From Candidatus Woesearchaeota archaeon (GTDB lineage Archaea; Nanobdellota; Nanobdellia; Nanobdellales; CAZNIQ01), in the NCBI GenBank assembly GCA_964573185.1, contig CAZNIQ010000001.1, forward strand, positions 1 through 7,760: a DNA stretch of 7,760 nt. The letters are read 5' to 3'. Under the pieces are notes generated by a model, which worked only from the letters and a program-made list of their open reading frames with translations, had not been told where the DNA came from and did no database searches. Each line of letters begins with the position of its first letter. Positions within the stretch are counted from its first letter, which is position 1. Shown in pieces: positions 742 to 6,688 of the stretch. The position numbers were made by a program, and so were the translations under genes.

Positions 742-1020
742 ATGCTAGTAAGAATTTCTAGAGTATCTTCTAAAGGACAAATAGTCATACCTCAAGTAAT
801 AAGAGCAAAATTAAAGATAAAGGAGGGAGATTTATTTCTTTTCATACCATTAAGTCATGATTTAATATTGTTGAAGAGAATAAGTTTTGATACCGAAGAT
901 TATAAGAAATTTACTGAAGAGTTAGTGGAGGAGCTTAAGAAATTGAGAGTACAGATAAAAAAGGAGATAATAGACAAGGCCTTAAAAAACCTAATAAAAA
1001 AGTATCAAGAAAATGAATAG
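742..1020 (+). CDS. AbrB/SpoVT (MazE-like swapped-hairpin) family DNA-binding protein with a charged helical C-terminal tail.
   Basis: The N-terminus MLVRISRVSSKGQIVIPQVIRAKLKIKEGDLFLF matches the SpoVT-AbrB pattern (x-V-x-xx-GQIxIPxxIRxxLxIxxGD). The C-terminal half is a K/E-rich predicted helix. The start is ATG, and the last 8 nt overlap the next gene (1013..1020). Confidence 0.8.
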   Translation: MLVRISRVSSKGQIVIPQVIRAKLKIKEGDLFLFIPLSHDLILLKRISFDTEDYKKFTEELVEELKKLRVQIKKEIIDKALKNLIKKYQENE

Positions 1021-2383
1021 AATTTCTTTAATATTTTCCTTATTTTTAATTCCAGTAGCATTTTCATTGTATTTTGATTTAACAAAAAGCTATACTGTTC
1101 CGAAGATCATAGAACCAAATAAGGACTTTACTTACTTTTTATATTTGGTAAATAACGAGGGCACTCCTGTATATGATGTTAAAGTAAAATTTTATCCCCC
1201 AGAATGTCTAAAGCTTTCCAAAGATGAATACGATATAGATACATTATATAACATATACGTAATTCCTTTAAAAGTAGAAAACAATTGTGGAGAAGGTACT
1301 TATTGGATTGATGCAAAAATAGAATATTACAACAATAAAGGATATCAAGAGATAAAAGAAACGATACCAATAATAGTTACAAGCGTACCTAATATTCTTA
1401 TCAAAAAAGTAGAAAGTAAAAATGCGTATCCCGGTAAAATAGCAAATATAACAGTTTATTTAGATAAAAGGAATGTTTATGATTTGAGAGTTTATATAAA
1501 TAGCACTTGTGTATATCCTAAAACCTCTTATATTTATGTAGGAGATTCTAACAGCTTCTGGTTTGAGGTACATGTACCGTATAGGACCTACGGAATTTGC
1601 CCTATTGTTTTAACATTTGTCTATCAAGATTGGCAAGAAAATCAATATAAAGACGTAAAAGCTATTAGTATAAAGATAAATAAATTGCTGGGAGATGTAG
1701 AATTATATAATTATACTGTAAAAAATGATAATTTGATAATTAAAATAAAAAATAATTGGAATACTAAGATTTATAATGTTCATTTGGTTTTATCCTCTAG
1801 AGATATTTTATTCAAGAAAAGTGAGGCATACATAAAGGAGCTACAGCCTTATCAAATATATGAATTGAGATTTCCATTTATTAAAGATAAAGAAGGTAGA
1901 TTTCTCGTAACAATAAATATGTTTTATACAGATGAAAATGGAAACCTATACAATAAAACATTAGTAATACCGGTTGAAATCTTTAGTAAACCCGATGTAT
2001 TGGTAAAACTTCAGAAGGTAGAAGGAAATGACATTAGATTAATAGTGATAAATTCTGCAAACAGTGATGTAAAATCTTTATACTTAGAACTTTTACCCGG
2101 AGATTATAAAATAATTGGGAGTAGAATTATTTATATAGGGGATCTAGAGGCTAATGATTATGATACTGCAGAATTTAAGATTATACCATTAAATAAAACG
2201 GTTATCTTAAAGTTAAAAGTGTATTTTAAGGATGCTTTAGGCAAAGTACATGTTCTATCTAAAAATATAACAGTTACCTTTCCAGAAGAAAAGAAAAATA
2301 CCTCAATATATTATGCGCTATTGGTAATAGTCCCAGTGATAATATACTTTGTATTTAAGAAGAGAAAAAGAGAGGAAGAATGA
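1013..2383 (+). CDS. Membrane-anchored surface protein with four tandem CARDB/COG1361-like ('S-layer domain'-type) beta-sandwich repeats.
   Basis: An N-terminal signal-like segment (MNRISLIFSLFLIPVAFSL) is followed by four repeats of about 100 aa, at roughly aa 27-122, 123-222, 223-323 and 324-423. Repeat 4 is the clearest: IRLIVINSANSDVKSLYLELLPGDYKIIGSRIIYIGDLEANDYDTAEFKIIP...LKVYFKDALGKVHVLSKNITVTF. A C-terminal TM helix (IYYALLVIVPVIIYFVF) precedes a basic tail, KKRKREEE. There are seven N-x-S/T sequons. The gene overlaps its upstream neighbour by 8 nt and its downstream neighbour by 4 nt. Confidence 0.8.
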   Translation: MNRISLIFSLFLIPVAFSLYFDLTKSYTVPKIIEPNKDFTYFLYLVNNEGTPVYDVKVKFYPPECLKLSKDEYDIDTLYNIYVIPLKVENNCGEGTYWIDAKIEYYNNKGYQEIKETIPIIVTSVPNILIKKVESKNAYPGKIANITVYLDKRNVYDLRVYINSTCVYPKTSYIYVGDSNSFWFEVHVPYRTYGICPIVLTFVYQDWQENQYKDVKAISIKINKLLGDVELYNYTVKNDNLIIKIKNNWNTKIYNVHLVLSSRDILFKKSEAYIKELQPYQIYELRFPFIKDKEGRFLVTINMFYTDENGNLYNKTLVIPVEIFSKPDVLVKLQKVEGNDIRLIVINSANSDVKSLYLELLPGDYKIIGSRIIYIGDLEANDYDTAEFKIIPLNKTVILKLKVYFKDALGKVHVLSKNITVTFPEEKKNTSIYYALLVIVPVIIYFVFKKRKREEE

Positions 2384-3561
2384 AATTATTAGATTTTTTA
2401 TACTTAGCTTTTAGGAATTTACAAAGAAGAAAGCTTAGGTCATGGTTAACTACTTTAGGTATAATTATTGGAATTGCTACAGTCGTTTCTATCGTTTCTT
2501 TAAGTAAAGGGATGGAGAAGGCAATAGTAAGTTCTTTAGAAAAAATGGGAAAGGATAAAATAATGATATTACCTGGTCAAAAATCCTTTTCTCCGGGAAC
2601 TTTATTTGTAGGAAAACCCTTTTCAGAAGAAGATGTAAAGAAAATAGAGAGGTTGCCAGACATAGAATATGTTATTCCAATTACATTTACAACTAAGCAA
2701 ATTATTTTTAAGAATGAAATTTTTCCTACAATTATTTATGCTGTCCCTGTAGATAAGAAAATAGAGGTTTTCGGATATGAACTTTTAGATGGAAGATTTC
2801 TAAGCAAAAATGATAAAAACAAATGTAGAGTTTTATTAGGATATCAAATAGCGAAACACGTTTTTTCAAAAGAAATAGAAGTTGGAGATAAAATTATAAT
2901 TAATAATTACGAATGTAAAGTTGTTGGTATTTTGAAATCAACCGGATCTAGGTTTGATGATTATGCAATATATTTGCCATACTCCTTTGCAAAAGAACAT
3001 CTTGGGATGAAAGATATTAATCTTATACTTGTTAAAGCAGAAGATATTGAAAAAGCTAAAAAGGAATTAGAAAAATTATTAGAAAAAATTAGAGGAAAAG
3101 ATTTTTCTATATTAACTCCAGAACAGTTTATAGAGCAAGTAAAAACTATTCTAAATATTTTATCTTTCTTTGTAACAATCATTGCTAGTATATCTTTGTT
3201 AGTATCAGCTATTGGTATTATGAATACTATGTACATGGCTGTAGTTGAAAGAATAAGAGAAATAGGTATTCTAAAAGCTATAGGTGCAAGGAAAAGGGAC
3301 ATTATGTTAATATTTCTTTTAGAATCAGGTTTGATGGGGCTTATAGGTGGTATTATTGGTACTTTTGTAGGAATTCTTTTATCGTATGTTGCTGAATATA
3401 TAGCTCAAAATATAGGATTAATTATGTTCAAAGCTTACATAGATCCGTTATTTATAATAGGAGTATTAATATTTGCTTTCTTCGTAGGAGTAATTTCTGG
3501 AATTTTACCAGCAAGATCAGCAGCGAACCTAGATCCTGTAAAAGCTTTAAGATATGAATAA
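2380..3561 (+). CDS. ABC transporter permease, MacB/FtsX type (COG0577-like).
   Basis: The N-terminus FRNLQRRKLRSWLTTLGIIIGIATVVSIV provides TM1. A soluble extracytoplasmic domain of about 210 aa follows, then a C-terminal FtsX-type three-helix bundle with the conserved ERIREIGILKAIGARKRDIMLIFLLES motif and the ending LPARSAANLDPVKALRYE. The start overlaps the previous stop as ATGA. GAGG lies about 7 nt upstream. Confidence 0.92.
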   Translation: MKLLDFLYLAFRNLQRRKLRSWLTTLGIIIGIATVVSIVSLSKGMEKAIVSSLEKMGKDKIMILPGQKSFSPGTLFVGKPFSEEDVKKIERLPDIEYVIPITFTTKQIIFKNEIFPTIIYAVPVDKKIEVFGYELLDGRFLSKNDKNKCRVLLGYQIAKHVFSKEIEVGDKIIINNYECKVVGILKSTGSRFDDYAIYLPYSFAKEHLGMKDINLILVKAEDIEKAKKELEKLLEKIRGKDFSILTPEQFIEQVKTILNILSFFVTIIASISLLVSAIGIMNTMYMAVVERIREIGILKAIGARKRDIMLIFLLESGLMGLIGGIIGTFVGILLSYVAEYIAQNIGLIMFKAYIDPLFIIGVLIFAFFVGVISGILPARSAANLDPVKALRYE

Positions 3562-3566
3562 TAATT

Positions 3567-3914
3567 ATGAAGCTTGTTGTAGTCGTTAGAACGGATTTAA
3601 ATATGGGGAAGGGAAAAATTTGTGCTCAGGTTGCACATGCGGCAGTAGAATGTGTTTTAGAAACTTTAAAAAGAAATCCAGAAAAAGTTGAAAAATGGAG
3701 AAATGAAGGAGCTAAAAAAATTGTTCTAAAAGTTAAATCTGAAAAAGAATTAATTAAAATATATGAGAGAGCAAAGAAAGAGGGTTTAGTAACTGTTTTG
3801 ATTAAAGACGCTGGCTTAACACAGATTCCCCCCGGAACTATCACATGTGTAGGAATTGGGCCTGATGAGGATGAAAAAATTGATAAAATTACAGGTCATT
3901 TGAAGTTGTTATGA
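3567..3914 (+). CDS. pth2: Peptidyl-tRNA hydrolase, archaeal/eukaryotic Pth2 type.
   Basis: The protein is 115 aa with hallmark Pth2 segments: KLVVVVRTDLNMGKGKICAQVAHAAV and DAGLTQIPPGTITCVGIGP. It starts 5 nt after the permease stop, and its own stop overlaps the next ATG (ATGA). Confidence 0.93.
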   Translation: MKLVVVVRTDLNMGKGKICAQVAHAAVECVLETLKRNPEKVEKWRNEGAKKIVLKVKSEKELIKIYERAKKEGLVTVLIKDAGLTQIPPGTITCVGIGPDEDEKIDKITGHLKLL

Positions 3915-4291
3915 GTATAGAAGATATTATTACTCAGTTAGAAAAATACAATTTAAAAGGAAAGAAAATTATCATGAGAATTGTATATGAAGACGAAAGG
4001 TTAACAATACCACCATTAGAAAGCGTTACTATCAGAACGAACAACAATACTTTCTTTATTACTAAATCAGAAATCATTTGTGATGAAGGAAATTATGAAG
4101 AACAAGGTGTTTATATTTTATACTCTAAAGGGCATGTTAGGATCATTCATAGAGAGATAGAAGCTAGTCCTTATTTGGGAAGACCGGTTGCAGTAATAAT
4201 TATGAAACTTTCTGAAGTAACTATTCACTATAGCAGAAAATGTTATGAGTTGTTAGGAAATCACTGTGCTTACTTGGACTGTCGTATCTAA
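3911..4291 (+). CDS. Hypothetical protein of 126 aa; I recognise no family.
   Basis: The frame is intact, with an ATGA overlap to pth2 that suggests translational coupling, and composition like the neighbouring genes. A Cys-containing C-terminus reads CYELLGNHCAYLDCRI. No diagnostic motif was recognised. The coding call rests on ORF length, coupling and the absence of a competing frame. Confidence 0.55.
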   Translation: MSIEDIITQLEKYNLKGKKIIMRIVYEDERLTIPPLESVTIRTNNNTFFITKSEIICDEGNYEEQGVYILYSKGHVRIIHREIEASPYLGRPVAVIIMKLSEVTIHYSRKCYELLGNHCAYLDCRI

Positions 4292-4581
4292 ATTATTTTT
4301 ATTGGCCTTCCCTCAATTATTGCTTGAATAATTTTTTTTCTAGCAGAATTTACCAACCTTGAAACTTTTGACCTTGATACTTTCATTTTTTCTGCAGCTT
4401 GTTCTTGTGTTAAACCTTCATAATCCACTAATCTTAAAGCTTCTAATTCCTCTTTAGTTAAAACAATTGGTTCTGCATTTTTTATGGGGACTGGTATTAA
4501 TTGTTGAACATCATATTCAAAAGAGATAAAAACGGGTAGAGGTGGTCTCCCCCTATGTCTGTGCCTCCATCTCCATCCCAT
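4288..4581 (-). CDS. DUF134/UPF0251-family (COG1342-like) putative DNA-binding protein with a sigma-70 region-4-like HTH.
   Basis: The segment IVLTKEELEALRLVDYEGLTQEQAAEKMKVSRSKVSRLVNSARKKIIQAIIEG matches the DUF134 core. I place the start at the ATG at 4581..4579 (MGWRWRHRHRGRPP...), not at the track's TTG at 4596. That ATG overlaps the upstream stop as TAATG. Confidence 0.85.
   Translation of the reverse strand: MGWRWRHRHRGRPPLPVFISFEYDVQQLIPVPIKNAEPIVLTKEELEALRLVDYEGLTQEQAAEKMKVSRSKVSRLVNSARKKIIQAIIEGRPIKII
4293..4303 (+). terminator. Possible archaeal oligo-T termination signal for the plus-strand unit that ends at 4291.
   Basis: The sequence ttatttttatt has a T5 run at 4296..4300, immediately after the TAA at 4289..4291. 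It lies inside the 3' end of the convergent minus-strand gene. The call is based on the motif only. Confidence 0.25.
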
Positions 4582-4952
4582 TATTTCCAACCCCAACCTC
4601 TTCTGCCCGCTTGAATACCTAAAGGTAACTCTCCTTTTTCAGCTTTTACTGCAGCTTCTTTTACTGTAATTGGCGGTGAAGAGAATAATTTAACTCCCGA
4701 TTGTGATAATATAGCATAAGCATTTCCACCAAACTGACCGGCAACAACAGCATCTACATTTTTAGATAATATGAATTGTGCTAGTGCAACACCCTTACCT
4801 TTGCCGGTTATTAATCCCGGATTTTGATATACTTCATAATTTTTGATTTCTCCATTTTCTACTTCAACTATTATTATGTATGGAGCTTGTCCGAAGCTAG
4901 GACTAACTAGTGAATTTAAATCAGGTCCCAAAGATGCTATTGCCACCCTCAT
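4581..4952 (-). CDS. NifX/NifB-C-terminal-like protein (dinitrogenase FeMo-cofactor-binding family, COG1433-like).
   Basis: MRVAIASLGPDLNSLVSPSFGQAPYIIIVEVENGEIKNYEVYQNP...GVALAQFILSKNVDAVVAGQFGGNAYAILSQSGVKLF follows the family pattern (MKIAVAS...VSPHFGRAPYF..V....GEI..., then ..VIAG.IG..A...L...GI.V.). I chose the ATG at 4952 rather than the track's start at 5015. The family normally begins directly at this beta-strand, and the longer version would consume the promoter and palindrome region. The protein carries an unusual C-terminal tail, GRRGWGWK. Confidence 0.88.
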   Translation of the reverse strand: MRVAIASLGPDLNSLVSPSFGQAPYIIIVEVENGEIKNYEVYQNPGLITGKGKGVALAQFILSKNVDAVVAGQFGGNAYAILSQSGVKLFSSPPITVKEAAVKAEKGELPLGIQAGRRGWGWK

Positions 4953-4976
4953 AAGTTTAACATTTTTAATAAGCTT

Positions 4977-5004
4977 TATAAAATTTTCTATAGAAAATTT
5001 TATA
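4977..5004. promoter_or_regulatory. Perfect 28-bp palindrome containing two divergent TATA boxes: a candidate bidirectional promoter and operator.
   Basis: TATAAAATTTTCTA|TAGAAAATTTTATA is exactly self-complementary; I checked it base by base, and pairing fails at 4976/5005. The plus-strand TATA (TTTATATA, 4999..5006) is centred about 25.5 nt upstream of the ATG at 5028. The minus-strand TATA (TTTATAAA, complement of 4975..4982) is centred about 26.5 nt upstream of the ATG at 4952. This predicts two leaderless divergent transcripts. Confidence 0.5.
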
Positions 5005-5027
5005 TATTTTTGCACAAATGTTCAGAT

Positions 5028-5282
5028 ATGCCAAGGGGTTGGTGCTGGTATTGGATACTACAAGGAAAAGTACCAGAAATACAGATAGGAAATCAAAGAA
5101 TACCATTAGTACCCGGAAGAGGAATGGGATGGTTAATATGGTACAGCATGTTAACAGGACAGCAACCTCAAATTAAGGTAACGGAAAAGAACGATATAGA
5201 AGAATTAAAAGAAATAGTAAAGCAACTTGCAATACAAATAGAAGAATTAAAGAGAAGGATTGAAGAATTAGAAAGAAGATGA
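5028..5282 (+). CDS. DUF5320-like small protein: an MPRG N-terminus, a G/R/W-rich middle and a C-terminal coiled coil.
   Basis: The sequence reads MPRGWCWYW...PGRGMGW...EKNDIEELKEIVKQLAIQIEELKRRIEELERR. DUF5320 proteins, as I recall them, start MPRGDGTGP, carry G/R-rich repeats and end in an E/L/K coiled coil. They commonly sit beside DUF134 and NifX-like genes. I chose the ATG at 5028 rather than the track's TTG at 5010. The stop overlaps the next ATG (ATGA). Confidence 0.65.
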   Translation: MPRGWCWYWILQGKVPEIQIGNQRIPLVPGRGMGWLIWYSMLTGQQPQIKVTEKNDIEELKEIVKQLAIQIEELKRRIEELERR

Positions 5283-5659
5283 AATTGCTAAAGGAATTCT
5301 TGAAGGTAAATGCCTTAATTTTTTCCATTCTTTTTATTTTTAATTTAATTCAAACTTTTGTAAATATAGAACAGATTTTAATAAACGTCAATAATATTAC
5401 AGGCATCCTTATTTCAGCAATACTTGGTGGAATTTTAATAGGAAATCCGAGTGTTTCTTATGTAATTGGTTACAAATTATTGAATTTAGGAGTACATCCT
5501 TGCATTGTAGGGACTTTTGTTTTAGCTTGGCTAACGGTAGGATTTCTTAACATACCTATAGAAGCAAAATATTTTGGAATTAAGTTTAGTATAAAGAAAA
5601 ATGCTTTATTCTTTGCGTTAGCAATAATATTTGGAATAATATGCTGGCTGATATATTAA
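5279..5659 (+). CDS. Small integral membrane protein, about 4 TM; half-size permease-like, partner 1.
   Basis: The 126-aa protein has four hydrophobic segments, at about aa 10-28, 40-55, 75-90 and 109-126. Its motif string GNP...YKLL...IP...GIK is colinear with the next gene's. It may be distantly related to the COG0701/DUF318-type 'predicted permease' repeat unit, which I have not verified. It overlaps the upstream gene by 4 nt and the downstream gene by 19 nt. Confidence 0.65.
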   Translation: MKLLKEFLKVNALIFSILFIFNLIQTFVNIEQILINVNNITGILISAILGGILIGNPSVSYVIGYKLLNLGVHPCIVGTFVLAWLTVGFLNIPIEAKYFGIKFSIKKNALFFALAIIFGIICWLIY

Positions 5660-6048
5660 TAAAAACTATACACGATTATTTGAGGATATTTCCATTTATA
5701 GTACTAGCATATATTTTAATTTATCTACTAAGAAAATTTAAAATAAAACAATATGCGAAGAAAGTCAAAAACAAAATACTATTGGCTTACGTTTTAGGGA
5801 TACTTTCTCATGGTCCTATTTACGCATGGTACCCCTTACTGAAGGAATTGGAATTCTCCGAAGAGGAACTTCTAGCTTTCTTTTACTTAAGAGGAATAAA
5901 GCTACCGCAAATACCATTACAAATAGCTTTACTAGGATTAAAGTTAACATTATTATTAAATTCGTATCTTCTTATAGTACCTTTTCTATTTCTTATTAAA
6001 GATTTAAAAAGTATTAAATTAAAGAAAGAAAGTGCTCTTCGGAAATAG
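5641..6048 (+). CDS. Small integral membrane protein, about 4 TM; half-size permease-like, partner 2.
   Basis: The 135-aa protein has hydrophobic segments at about aa 16-30, 46-63, 90-106 and 108-119. Its motif string HGP...YPLL...IP...GLK falls at nearly the same offsets as in the preceding protein. It starts with ATG and overlaps its neighbours by 19 nt and 17 nt. Confidence 0.65.
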   Translation: MLADILIKTIHDYLRIFPFIVLAYILIYLLRKFKIKQYAKKVKNKILLAYVLGILSHGPIYAWYPLLKELEFSEEELLAFFYLRGIKLPQIPLQIALLGLKLTLLLNSYLLIVPFLFLIKDLKSIKLKKESALRK

Positions 6049-6688
6049 AGTTCTATATGCTGGGTGTATGTACAAATTTGCATTGAAGGACAAATTTGAA
6101 GGATACAGAAAGTTACTACAGAGATATATGGATATAATCATCTTGCCAGAAGAATTTTGTTGCGGGAGACCCGTTATGAATTTAGGGTATTTGGATGATT
6201 ATAAAGAGCTCGTTAAAAGGAATTTTGAGCTATTTAAAAAGTACAATGTTAAAGAAATAATTTGTCCTTGTCCAGCTTGCTATAAAACCTTTAAAGAAGA
6301 ATATCCAAAAATACTCGGTAATAAATGGAAAATAAAAGTAAAGCATGTGTCCGAAGTTTTATTAGAATTGGCTAAAAAAGGAAAGCTAAAGAAAAAAGAC
6401 GTAAAGAAAGTTATATATCATAAAAATTGCCATTTAAGGGATACAAATTTTGTAGAAGAATTATTGAAGGAATTAAAAATTGAATATACTATCTTAAATG
6501 GTTGTTGTGGTGCTGGTGGAGGATTTAGAGCAAACTTTCCTGAAATAGCTAGAGAAATAGCTTGGAAATTAACAGAAGGCTTAAGAGGCACCATTCTTAC
6601 TGCTTGTCCAATGTGTTATTATCATTTAAGAGAAAGTACTTGCAGATGTAGGCTGGAAATTTTAGATTTAATTGATATAGTCCTATGA
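6032..6688 (+). CDS. (Fe-S)-binding protein with two CCG cysteine-rich domains; LutA / HdrB / GlpC-like (COG0247-like).
   Basis: There are two copies of the CCG-domain cysteine pattern. The first is C12...C43-C44-G...C78/C80..C83 (FCCGRP...CPCPAC). The second is C133...C158-C159-G...C192..C195 (GCCGAGGG...CPMC). The N-terminus RVLYAGC resembles the usual KVALFxxC start of LutA-type proteins. That supports the GTG start at 6032, since no in-frame ATG precedes this motif. Confidence 0.88.
   Translation: MLFGNRVLYAGCMYKFALKDKFEGYRKLLQRYMDIIILPEEFCCGRPVMNLGYLDDYKELVKRNFELFKKYNVKEIICPCPACYKTFKEEYPKILGNKWKIKVKHVSEVLLELAKKGKLKKKDVKKVIYHKNCHLRDTNFVEELLKELKIEYTILNGCCGAGGGFRANFPEIAREIAWKLTEGLRGTILTACPMCYYHLRESTCRCRLEILDLIDIVL

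Follow-up and report, generated by a model that had tools for sequence, protein, structure and literature searches.

A compact archaeal locus with tryptophan-, glycine- and arginine-rich segments on NifX-like, DUF134 and DUF5320-like proteins: a candidate IssA-type iron-sulfur handling module

The stretch of DNA analyzed here (hereafter the window) comprises the first 7,760 nucleotides of contig CAZNIQ010000001.1 from the genome assembly of a Candidatus Woesearchaeota archaeon (GCA_964573185.1), and its GC content is 26-37% (genome ~30% GC). In this window, we found two divergent and closely packed gene sets (Table 1). One set, on the minus strand, contains a gene for a NifX-like protein and a gene for a helix-turn-helix (HTH) protein of the DUF134 family; the other, on the plus strand, contains a DUF5320-like gene and two genes for small membrane proteins. 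The NifX-like, DUF134, and DUF5320-like proteins each carry short segments that are rich in tryptophan, glycine, and arginine, with the approximate form [R/M]-G-W-x-W. A previous reading of the window made by a model from the letters and open reading frames (hereafter the sequence-only reading) had singled out this motif. Its gene starts and stops, as well as the stop/start overlap that translationally couples the NifX-like and DUF134 genes, were correct on reading the sequence, and the motif-bearing termini lie exactly at the sites it had named. A frameshift or read-through fusion of these two genes was ruled out; shortly upstream of TTG 4596, the reading frame of DUF134 closes.

Table 1. Positions of the genes and sequence features of the locus within the window.
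Feature	Positions	Strand	Description
DUF134 / UPF0251 HTH gene	4288-4581	-	97 amino acids (aa); PF02001
DUF134 N-terminal arm MGWRWRHRHRGRPP	4540-4581	-	W/R-rich segment
NifX-like (Nitro_FeMo-Co) gene	4581-4952	-	123 aa from MRVAIA, ATG 4952; PF02579
NifX-like C-terminal tail GRRGWGWK*	4584-4607	-	W/G/R segment
TAATG stop/start overlap, NifX-like/DUF134	4579-4583	-	TAA 4583-4581, ATG 4581-4579; read from sequence
Divergent promoter region with palindrome	4953-5027	.	75 bp intergenic
DUF5320-like gene	5028-5282	+	84 aa; W/R/G-rich N-terminal half and C-terminal coiled-coil helix
DUF5320-like motif MPRGWCWYW	5028-5054	+	N-terminus
DUF5320-like motif PGRGMGWLIW	5112-5141	+	internal, residues 29-38
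Small membrane protein 1	5279-5659	+	126 aa; ATG overlaps DUF5320-like stop as ATGA
Small membrane protein 2	5641-6048	+	135 aa; 19-nt overlap with membrane protein 1

The three proteins together contain nine tryptophans in 304 aa, and all nine are located within the R/G-rich motif segments, three of which are at protein ends and one internal. The eight other proteins of the window have 11 tryptophans in 1661 aa (0.66%). The binomial probability of at least two tryptophans in 8 residues is 1.2e-3 per terminus, and that of at least five in 39 residues is 6e-6, which bears out the earlier view that these clusters are unlikely to be due to chance. The motif residues are also conserved. Seven relatives of the NifX-like protein, with identities as low as 42% and some of them from the GC-rich Thermococcus, all have G116, R117, G119, and W120. 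Similarly, six relatives of the DUF5320-like protein, the most distant at 33% identity, all retain W5 and W7, PGRGMGWLIW is kept in four close homologs, and an R-W-R...GRP arm recurs in about 10 DUF134 homologs. Between the window and L001, a locus of the same gene order from another assembly (GCA_054017035.1), the motif codons differ by synonymous changes (GGG/GGA, AGA/AGG, and CAC/CAT), and the NifX-like tail of L001 reads GRRGWK, which is one GW unit shorter than GRRGWGWK. Judging from these comparisons, the motif segments are translated and under selection at the protein level. Our initial definition of the motif also accepted K and H and was permissive, with 3.3% of the background archaeal genes matching it at a terminus: the motif is present in the terminal 25 residues of 13/398 such genes, and anywhere in 15/24 DUF134 proteins.

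The family assignments of the NifX-like and DUF134 proteins made in the sequence-only reading were both correct. The former matches PF02579 with 69.5 bits (cut-off 26.3; residues 13-103), and the latter matches PF02001 with 80.2 bits (cut-off 27; residues 10-94). Among the proteins with solved structures, the best relative of the NifX-like protein is MTH1175 (1eo1; E = 3.7e-20); ORP (2wfb) matched with E = 1.2e-7 and a "probable NifB" protein with E = 1.9e-6, and NafY gave no match in this comparison with the Protein Data Bank (PDB). A word-index homolog search returned six matches. The NifX-like protein has a predicted isoelectric point (pI) of 9.26 and shares 40% identity with the IssA ortholog of Thermococcus piezophilus and 45% with the 137-aa paralog of the same organism. 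In a neighbor-joining tree of the domain only, which lacks support values as well as bona fide references for NifB, NifX, and NafY, it groups with these two proteins. In the same tree, proteins with R/G(W) tails form two adjacent leaf groups that are interrupted by a few tail-less proteins, and those with Cys/His tails form a separate group. The relatives end in GRWKGWRRRGWRGPNW or, in Thermococcus, GMGRGMGRGMGHGRGGW; R-x-G-W is invariant among them, and their tails are longer and have GMGRG repeats. Gene callers place the beginning of the NifX-like protein at GTG 5015, which results in a 144-aa product with the extension VQKYIKFSIENFIKLIKNVKL. This start is probably too far upstream because most of the homologs (P0007-P0009) begin at the MRVAIA/MKIAV position (also MRIV), and the extension upstream of 4952 is probably untranslated promoter DNA.

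IssA (SipA, PF2025) of Pyrococcus furiosus keeps a store of iron and sulfur in the form of thioferrate (PMC5524996). The IssA clade of IPR003731 NifX-like proteins is defined in part by a cationic, glycine-rich C-terminal tail with W, G, and R as the conserved residues (Vaccaro et al., 2017, PMC5524996), and this tail has been proposed to bind anionic (FeS2-)n thioferrate electrostatically, with the aromatic residues stabilizing the assembly (PMC5524996). Other traits of the clade are high predicted pI, nanoparticle formation, and induction by sulfide and iron, and the tails can be short or absent, as in MTH1175 (PMC5524996). The tail of the T. piezophilus ortholog (75 aa, with 9 P, 17 G, 11 R/K, 16 aromatic residues, and 1 C) fits the published description of IssA. 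With eight residues, GRRGWGWK falls inside the class of shortened tails allowed in that work (PMC5524996). We read the NifX-like protein of the window as a putative short-tailed member of the IssA clade, on the strength of its sequence and of the tree described above. The IssA clade also contradicts the earlier statement that a NifX-like core normally lacks such a tail (PMC5524996).

For the DUF134 protein, the score against the NCBIfam equivalog PRK04217 is 92.6 bits, which is below the cut-off of 115. In the AlphaFold2 model, residues 39-97 form a three-helix domain similar to sigma-70 region 4, with predicted local distance difference test (pLDDT) values of 92-98, and residues 1-38 have no secondary structure and low confidence (pLDDT 49 for residues 1-10). 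In Foldseek, 41-47 residues of this model superpose on region 4 of SigD and on the DNA-binding domain of DeoR with root-mean-square deviations of 0.6-0.9 Å; given the small size of the domain, the E-values are weak (~0.05-0.2). No DUF134 structure was found in the PDB. The W-rich extension directly precedes the conserved basic RGRP arm. The arm reads HRHRGRPP, for which Pfam gave no AT_hook match at E <= 0.01, an absence that carries little weight given how short this model is. DUF134 relatives begin with MRWRHRHRGLP, GYRWRWRGGRGRP, or KKLWRHRHRRGRP. A segment close to this arm was also observed at the end of P0029 (RGRCGWRHRHRGNRC).

The third protein had been named as DUF5320, and this membership was not supported: its score against PF17253 is 19.5 bits (E = 0.0023; cut-off 27), and only its C-terminal helix aligns in a profile-profile comparison. 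Using hhalign, the comparison with 20 DUF5320 proteins collected from the loci surveyed below (19/20 confirmed by Pfam) gave a probability of 97% and E = 9.5e-11 over the last 36 columns only, a score that the coiled-coil composition of this helix may inflate. The conserved C-terminal pattern E.E..L..Q...L...I.KRL.EL is present. The N-terminal half is unaligned by hhalign and lacks the MPxGDxTGPxGxGPxTGRGxGxC signature, with only "MPRG" in common. Judged by eye in this unaligned part, PGRGMGWLIW resembles the DUF5320 core G(Y/W)R(W/Y)RRMYYLTGLPGW found in L012, L016, and L082. Based on these sequence comparisons, the 84-aa protein is DUF5320-like in architecture and not a demonstrated member of the family. 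Its AlphaFold2 model has a mean pLDDT of 67 and a predicted template-modeling score of 0.30, with the helix at residues 54-83 reaching pLDDT 81-85. This subfamily is rare, with three real clusters among 1.84e9 representatives. A word-index search returned four matches, an exhaustive profile search yielded no more than two further real relatives, and a metagenome scan with the alignment of this protein gave no matches. The distant relatives begin with MPGWGWWFLL or, in the longer form P0037, MPWGWRGRGWGRGFCWYLL. P0036 and P0037 are located on contigs shorter than 1 kb, and in the divergent member P0036 the first residues of the next gene are NifX-like as judged by eye. Another profile match, P0038 (1074 aa with ~19 repeats of GGMPGWCWWYVVGC; E = 7e-4), was rejected as, almost certainly, an artifact of translating GC-rich tandem-repeat DNA.

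One genome per species was scanned for DUF134 relatives, and 80 loci with 10-kb flanks were compared. A W-containing basic arm was found in 15/24 archaeal and 4/60 bacterial DUF134 proteins (p = 2e-7), and three of these four bacterial proteins are probably over-extended open reading frames. In archaea, the W-containing extension precedes a conserved G-R-x-P-K-P-R arm (e.g., GFGWRWGWRRKGPGRPPKPR and PPWRWCWRREGRGRRPKPR), whereas bacterial DUF134 proteins begin with MPRPKKxRR and have no tryptophan. The W-free termini that the sequence-only reading gave for these families (MPRGDGTGP and MPRPRK) are correct as bacterial forms but not for archaea, where the forms are W-rich. The idea of a lineage-specific tag did not hold either, since these R/G/W segments are also found in Thermococcus, Desulfurococcales, Bathyarchaeia, Aenigmatarchaeota, Asgard, and other archaea. 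W-rich variants of DUF5320 are also common in archaea. One T. piezophilus locus has the motif on four proteins: a 182-aa NifX-like protein (IssA) with the tail ...GFGWGRGRSWGRGWGRGGRGWG...RWLYGWW, the 137-aa NifX-like paralog, a 72-aa membrane protein beginning with MPRGMGRGYGRGFGR, and a DUF134 protein beginning with MPMGMGRGWGRGRGRRRK.

Several side observations were made on these families. Extreme Trp-rich DUF5320 variants are encoded in L012 (2106-2369, minus strand), L016 (7959-8267, plus strand), and L008 (1430-1891, minus strand); one such variant, MWWLAASHWYPYVYWFWRCWWFPWLPRWWWTG, has 12 W in its first 42 residues, and another has repeated AYPWYW units. Many bacterial DUF134 proteins have a C-terminal CxxC...CxxC zinc ribbon that is followed by an R/G/C-rich tail, such as GRGQGRCCRG or GHGQGRWGRGWSGG (L019, L023, L024, L029, L032, L038, L059, L063, L065, L066, L069, and L077). 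The R/G motif of these bacterial proteins is at the opposite end from the archaeal position.

Natural fusions link the three families pairwise. Two Bathyarchaeia proteins (L012 and L084) are Pfam-confirmed fusions of Nitro_FeMo-Co and DUF5320, in which the NifX-like R/G tail continues directly into the DUF5320 coiled coil. Two bacteria (L052 and L073) have Pfam-confirmed fusions of DUF134, a zinc ribbon, and Nitro_FeMo-Co, and a fusion of DUF134 with the N-terminal motif of DUF5320 (L085) is sub-threshold in Pfam. Because of these natural fusions, the sequences suggest that the R/G region of DUF5320 and the IssA-type tail may be the same kind of module, placed in cis or in trans. Related loci also contain fusions of CDF (Cation_efflux) with NifX-like domains, as well as an EncFtn-like neighbor, which fits metal handling. 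The CDF-NifX entries are L003 (455-1657), L015 (3991-5379), L022 (7332-8597), and L082 (5217-6455); the Pfam scan covered the first two, and the CDF N-terminus was identified in both. The L015 protein ends with ...GRRGRGPRWRR, and the EncFtn-like gene is located near the L003 entry.

The intergenic region between the two gene sets contains a perfect 28-bp palindrome, TATAAAATTTTCTATAGAAAATTTTATA, at 4977-5004, with the core AAAATTTTCTATAGAAAATTTT at 4980-5001 and a TATA-like element on each arm. This 75-bp region is ~95% identical to that of L001, and it is more conserved than the flanking coding DNA. The only difference within the palindrome in L001 (AAAATTTT to AAAAATTT) is mirrored on the opposite arm, such that the palindrome is kept. 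Beyond its single site in the window, the core was found only in L001/L002 and in three contigs that carry the locus of the window itself (L088-L090). Based on its sequence and position, the palindrome could be a DUF134 operator or two inverted elements of the TATA and B-recognition element (BRE) type.

The gene order of the block is also conserved. In L001, PTH2, a gene of no assigned family, DUF134, and the NifX-like gene are followed by the divergent DUF5320-like gene and two transmembrane protein genes, as in the window. The NifX-like and DUF134 genes of L001 (9575-9988 and 9282-9578) overlap by 4 nt (ATGA), and the surroundings are archaeal, with S-layer, RNase P p29, GatD, and FtsZ genes. 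The locus of the window was found again in hydrothermal-type metagenome contigs. By hydropathy, membrane protein 1 has several hydrophobic segments, and both membrane proteins are conserved at the same position in L001. These two proteins and the 126-aa protein encoded upstream have no match among the Pfam and NCBIfam families at a threshold as loose as E = 10, and among the 80 surveyed loci their relatives were found in L001 only. The gene for the latter protein (3911-4291, plus strand) converges with DUF134 such that the ends overlap by 4 nt (4288-4291), and its counterpart in L001 matches with E = 1e-20.

Taken with the gene structure, the motif conservation, the clade placement, the predicted disorder of the DUF134 arm, and the fusions observed here, the comparison with IssA leads us to propose that this region is a compact IssA-type iron-sulfur (Fe-S) handling module of an AT-rich uncultured archaeon, in which cationic-aromatic segments contact a shared polyanion. 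We give this reading a probability of about one in two, and we infer its function, including the ligand and the regulation at this locus, entirely. The motif would be a local and condensed form of the cationic, aromatic, and glycine-rich segment that is typical of such neighborhoods across Archaea and that was originally reported as the C-tail of IssA. The segments would bind the polyanion by charge, and the tryptophans would add stacking contacts. By analogy with IssA, this polyanion would most likely be thioferrate-like (FeS2-)n, or another Fe-S species of this kind that the NifX-like domain holds. On an oligomerizing helix, the DUF5320-like protein may add further tail segments in trans, as the NifX-DUF5320 fusions may do in cis. 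DUF134 is likely the local regulator and would act on the divergent promoters, and its W-rich extension may help to contact DNA or may let the regulator sense the same Fe-S species. Among the roles listed in the sequence-only reading, a cofactor contact, which was given there as a fallback, comes nearest to this explanation.

Several observations weigh against this proposal. The tail of the window protein has eight residues with three cationic side chains, compared to ~70 residues in IssA, and it may be vestigial. No MinD/Fer4 ATPases were found in the window or L001, unlike in the classical clusters. The W segments of the DUF5320-like protein are hydrophobic (WCWYWIL and GWLIWYSML) and are modeled by AlphaFold2 as short helices around a hairpin (pLDDT 54-66) and not as a disordered R/G tail. 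The tree behind the clade placement has the limits given above. Furthermore, the binding of thioferrate by the IssA tail is itself a proposal, and the isolated domain already binds iron and sulfur (PMC5524996). According to its abstract, a Mössbauer study of ΔIssA suggests that thioferrate-like iron still forms without IssA. Finally, co-variation of the motif among the proteins had been set as a check by the sequence-only reading, and none was found within archaea: the W-containing arm of DUF134 shows no association with the presence of an IssA-clade gene within 10 kb (6/9 vs 6/3, Fisher p = 0.40). An earlier pass with a crude cut of the N-terminus gave p = 0.66 and 0.35, and the value of 0.40 was obtained with corrected segmentation. 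The only strong co-variation signal is that between Archaea and Bacteria, which is confounded by phylogeny.

A stronger version of the proposal is that the W/G/R segment is a portable module for binding Fe-S polyanions, and that DUF134 uses it as a direct sensor. In such a scheme, the operator DNA would have a competitor for the W/R-RGRP arm in thioferrate-like (FeS2-)n, a polyanion that is linear, as the DNA backbone is. Transcription of the divergent IssA-like and DUF5320-like operons would then be directly responsive to the Fe-S store, and the DUF5320 proteins would serve as detachable "tails in trans" and determine the size of the nanoparticles. We consider this version unlikely.

Alternatively, the segments may serve mutual recognition or co-assembly, binding each other through cation-pi and aromatic contacts to form a three-protein complex or condensate with no inorganic ligand. 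The presence of the same motif on several proteins of one neighborhood and the translational coupling of the genes would fit, as would the pairwise fusions, which are often the mark of physical partners, and the multiprotein ORP complex that NifX-like proteins form in Desulfovibrio (PMC6345978). However, the DUF134 motif does not track the R/G-tailed NifX-like gene within archaea (p = 0.40), and like-charged Arg-rich segments should repel each other without a counter-ion polymer, a point that was made for IssA (PMC5524996). Such a role, which the sequence-only reading had put forward, is doubtful.

A contact with nucleic acid is similarly improbable; here the segments would be arms akin to RGG boxes or AT-hooks that bind DNA or RNA, above all in DUF134, where WRWRHRH directly precedes the RGRP core. 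The core of an AT-hook is R-G-R-P flanked by basic residues. The RGRP core of DUF134 has such flanks in a genome of ~30% GC, the HTH domain of this protein is confidently predicted to be sigma-70 region 4-like, and a palindrome is located in the divergent promoter. In addition, a survey of archaeal G-quadruplex-binding motifs found the DUF134 and DUF5320 proteins of M. mazei among its four top RG-motif hits (PMC7565180). Against this, nucleic-acid binding leaves the tail on a NifX-like metal-cluster domain and on a membrane protein unexplained, and Pfam gave no AT-hook match. Moreover, bacterial DUF134 proteins keep the basic arm without tryptophan, and thus tryptophan is not needed for DNA binding by this family.

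Peptides rich in tryptophan and arginine favor membrane interfaces. The segments may be anchors, similar to (RW)n peptides, that dock the soluble proteins on anionic lipid or on the membrane proteins of 5279-6048. The coupling (ATGA) of the DUF5320-like gene to the two conserved membrane-protein genes and the hydrophobic W segments modeled as short helices are consistent with this possibility, and in Thermococcus the MPRGMGRGYGRGFGR N-terminus is fused directly to transmembrane helices. We nevertheless regard it as quite unlikely: IssA has the same kind of tail and is a soluble nanoparticle-forming protein, a membrane-bound DNA-binding regulator would be unusual, the membrane proteins match no family, transporter or other, and the AlphaFold2 model is of low confidence.

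Lastly, compositional noise or a by-product of nucleotide signals at gene junctions (G-runs, Shine-Dalgarno sequences, or RNA structure) is effectively excluded: despite the G-runs on the coding strand of the NifX-like/DUF134 junction (GGTTGGGGTTGGAAATAATGGGATGGAGATGGAGG) and a predicted terminator-like hairpin, the tryptophans exceed chance expectation by far, homologs from GC-rich and AT-rich lineages keep the motif residues invariant, the motif codons have synonymous substitutions, the RNA fold of the junction is not unusual (z = -0.41), and no Rfam match was found in the window. The hairpin (4537-4555, minus strand; GGGGGAGACCACCTCT followed by a T-run) is located inside the DUF134 codons for RGRPPLPVF, and it is probably due to chance because the whole junction folds no better than shuffled sequence.

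Other genes of the window surround this block. Downstream, a CCG-domain protein that is LutA- or HdrB-like (6032-6688, plus strand) is followed by a LutB-like LUD-domain protein with two 4Fe-4S motifs, which runs off the end of the window (7760). This pair is probably unrelated to the module because it is missing from the syntenic block of L001. Upstream, an overlapping chain of genes (742-3561, plus strand) encodes a MazE/AbrB-like 92-aa protein, a family-less 456-aa protein with a C-terminal hydrophobic anchor, and a MacB/FtsX-type permease, and an ABC ATPase signature was observed on the opposite strand near positions 100-280. In L001, bacterial-type fatty-acid and phospholipid genes (FakA-like/Dak2, PlsY (G3P_acyltransf), and DegV) are found at 6283-8508 within the archaeal contig, with S-layer, RNase P p29, GatD, and Hef-like helicase genes as neighbors.

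Storage of thioferrate by IssA-type proteins is, to our knowledge, the only known biological Fe-S mineral store, with presumed importance for archaea that live anaerobically on sulfide, S0, or pyrite. For a NifX-like protein, the W/G/R tail has already been published. The same tail chemistry on DUF134, DUF5320, and a small membrane protein, together with the pairwise fusions, is not described in the searchable literature, and almost nothing relevant was found in the literature on DUF134, DUF5320, UPF0251, or COG1342. The recurrence of IssA-like tail chemistry on DUF134, DUF5320, and small membrane proteins of the same neighborhoods provides a concrete and cheap set of candidates for a regulator and assembly partners, and the findings in the window offer a first functional context for two uncharacterized families, DUF134 and DUF5320. 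The compact locus, with its short tail, six genes, and no ATPases, may be a convenient minimal system. If the direct-sensor version were true, DUF134 and DUF5320 would gain a function and the IssA system a dedicated regulator; if the motif were only a generic arm for polyanions or DNA, the finding would shrink to a family annotation.

Compared with known systems, the ORP complex of Desulfovibrio vulgaris resembles this locus in having NifX-like single-domain proteins, which there belong to a multiprotein metal-sulfur-cluster complex (PMC6345978). The ORP proteins differ in that they have no R/G/W tails, and the complex is built around MinD/Mrp ATPases, which this locus lacks, and is regulated by sigma-54 and not by DUF134. 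As in DUF5320 (PF17253), the third protein of the window combines an N-terminal half containing R, G, and aromatic residues with a C-terminal E..L..Q...L...I.KRL.EL helix and keeps the same genomic company. It differs from that family in scoring below the cut-off, in lacking the MPRGDGTGPMG...GYC signature, and in having a hydrophobic, aromatic N-terminal half in place of an R/G repeat. The regulator has the full-length Pfam match, the sigma-70 region 4-like three-helix domain, and the conserved basic G-R-x-P arm of DUF134 / UPF0251 (PF02001, COG1342), and its linkage to a NifX-like gene is typical of this family, which includes DUF134-NifX fusions. Unlike the bacterial members (MPRPKKxRR), it has the archaeal N-terminal extension G-W-R-W-R-H-R-H, and unlike many of them it has no C-terminal zinc ribbon. 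The differences from IssA are a tail of 8 rather than ~70 residues with no proline-rich spacer and no Cys, a closer relationship to the 137-aa Thermococcus paralog (45%) than to IssA itself, and the absence of MinD/Fer4 ATPases near the locus. The NifX-like protein of the window nevertheless has the same globular domain as IssA, a basic pI, and a C-terminal W/G/R segment, and, like the Thermococcus locus, its neighborhood includes a DUF134 protein and small proteins with the R/G motif.

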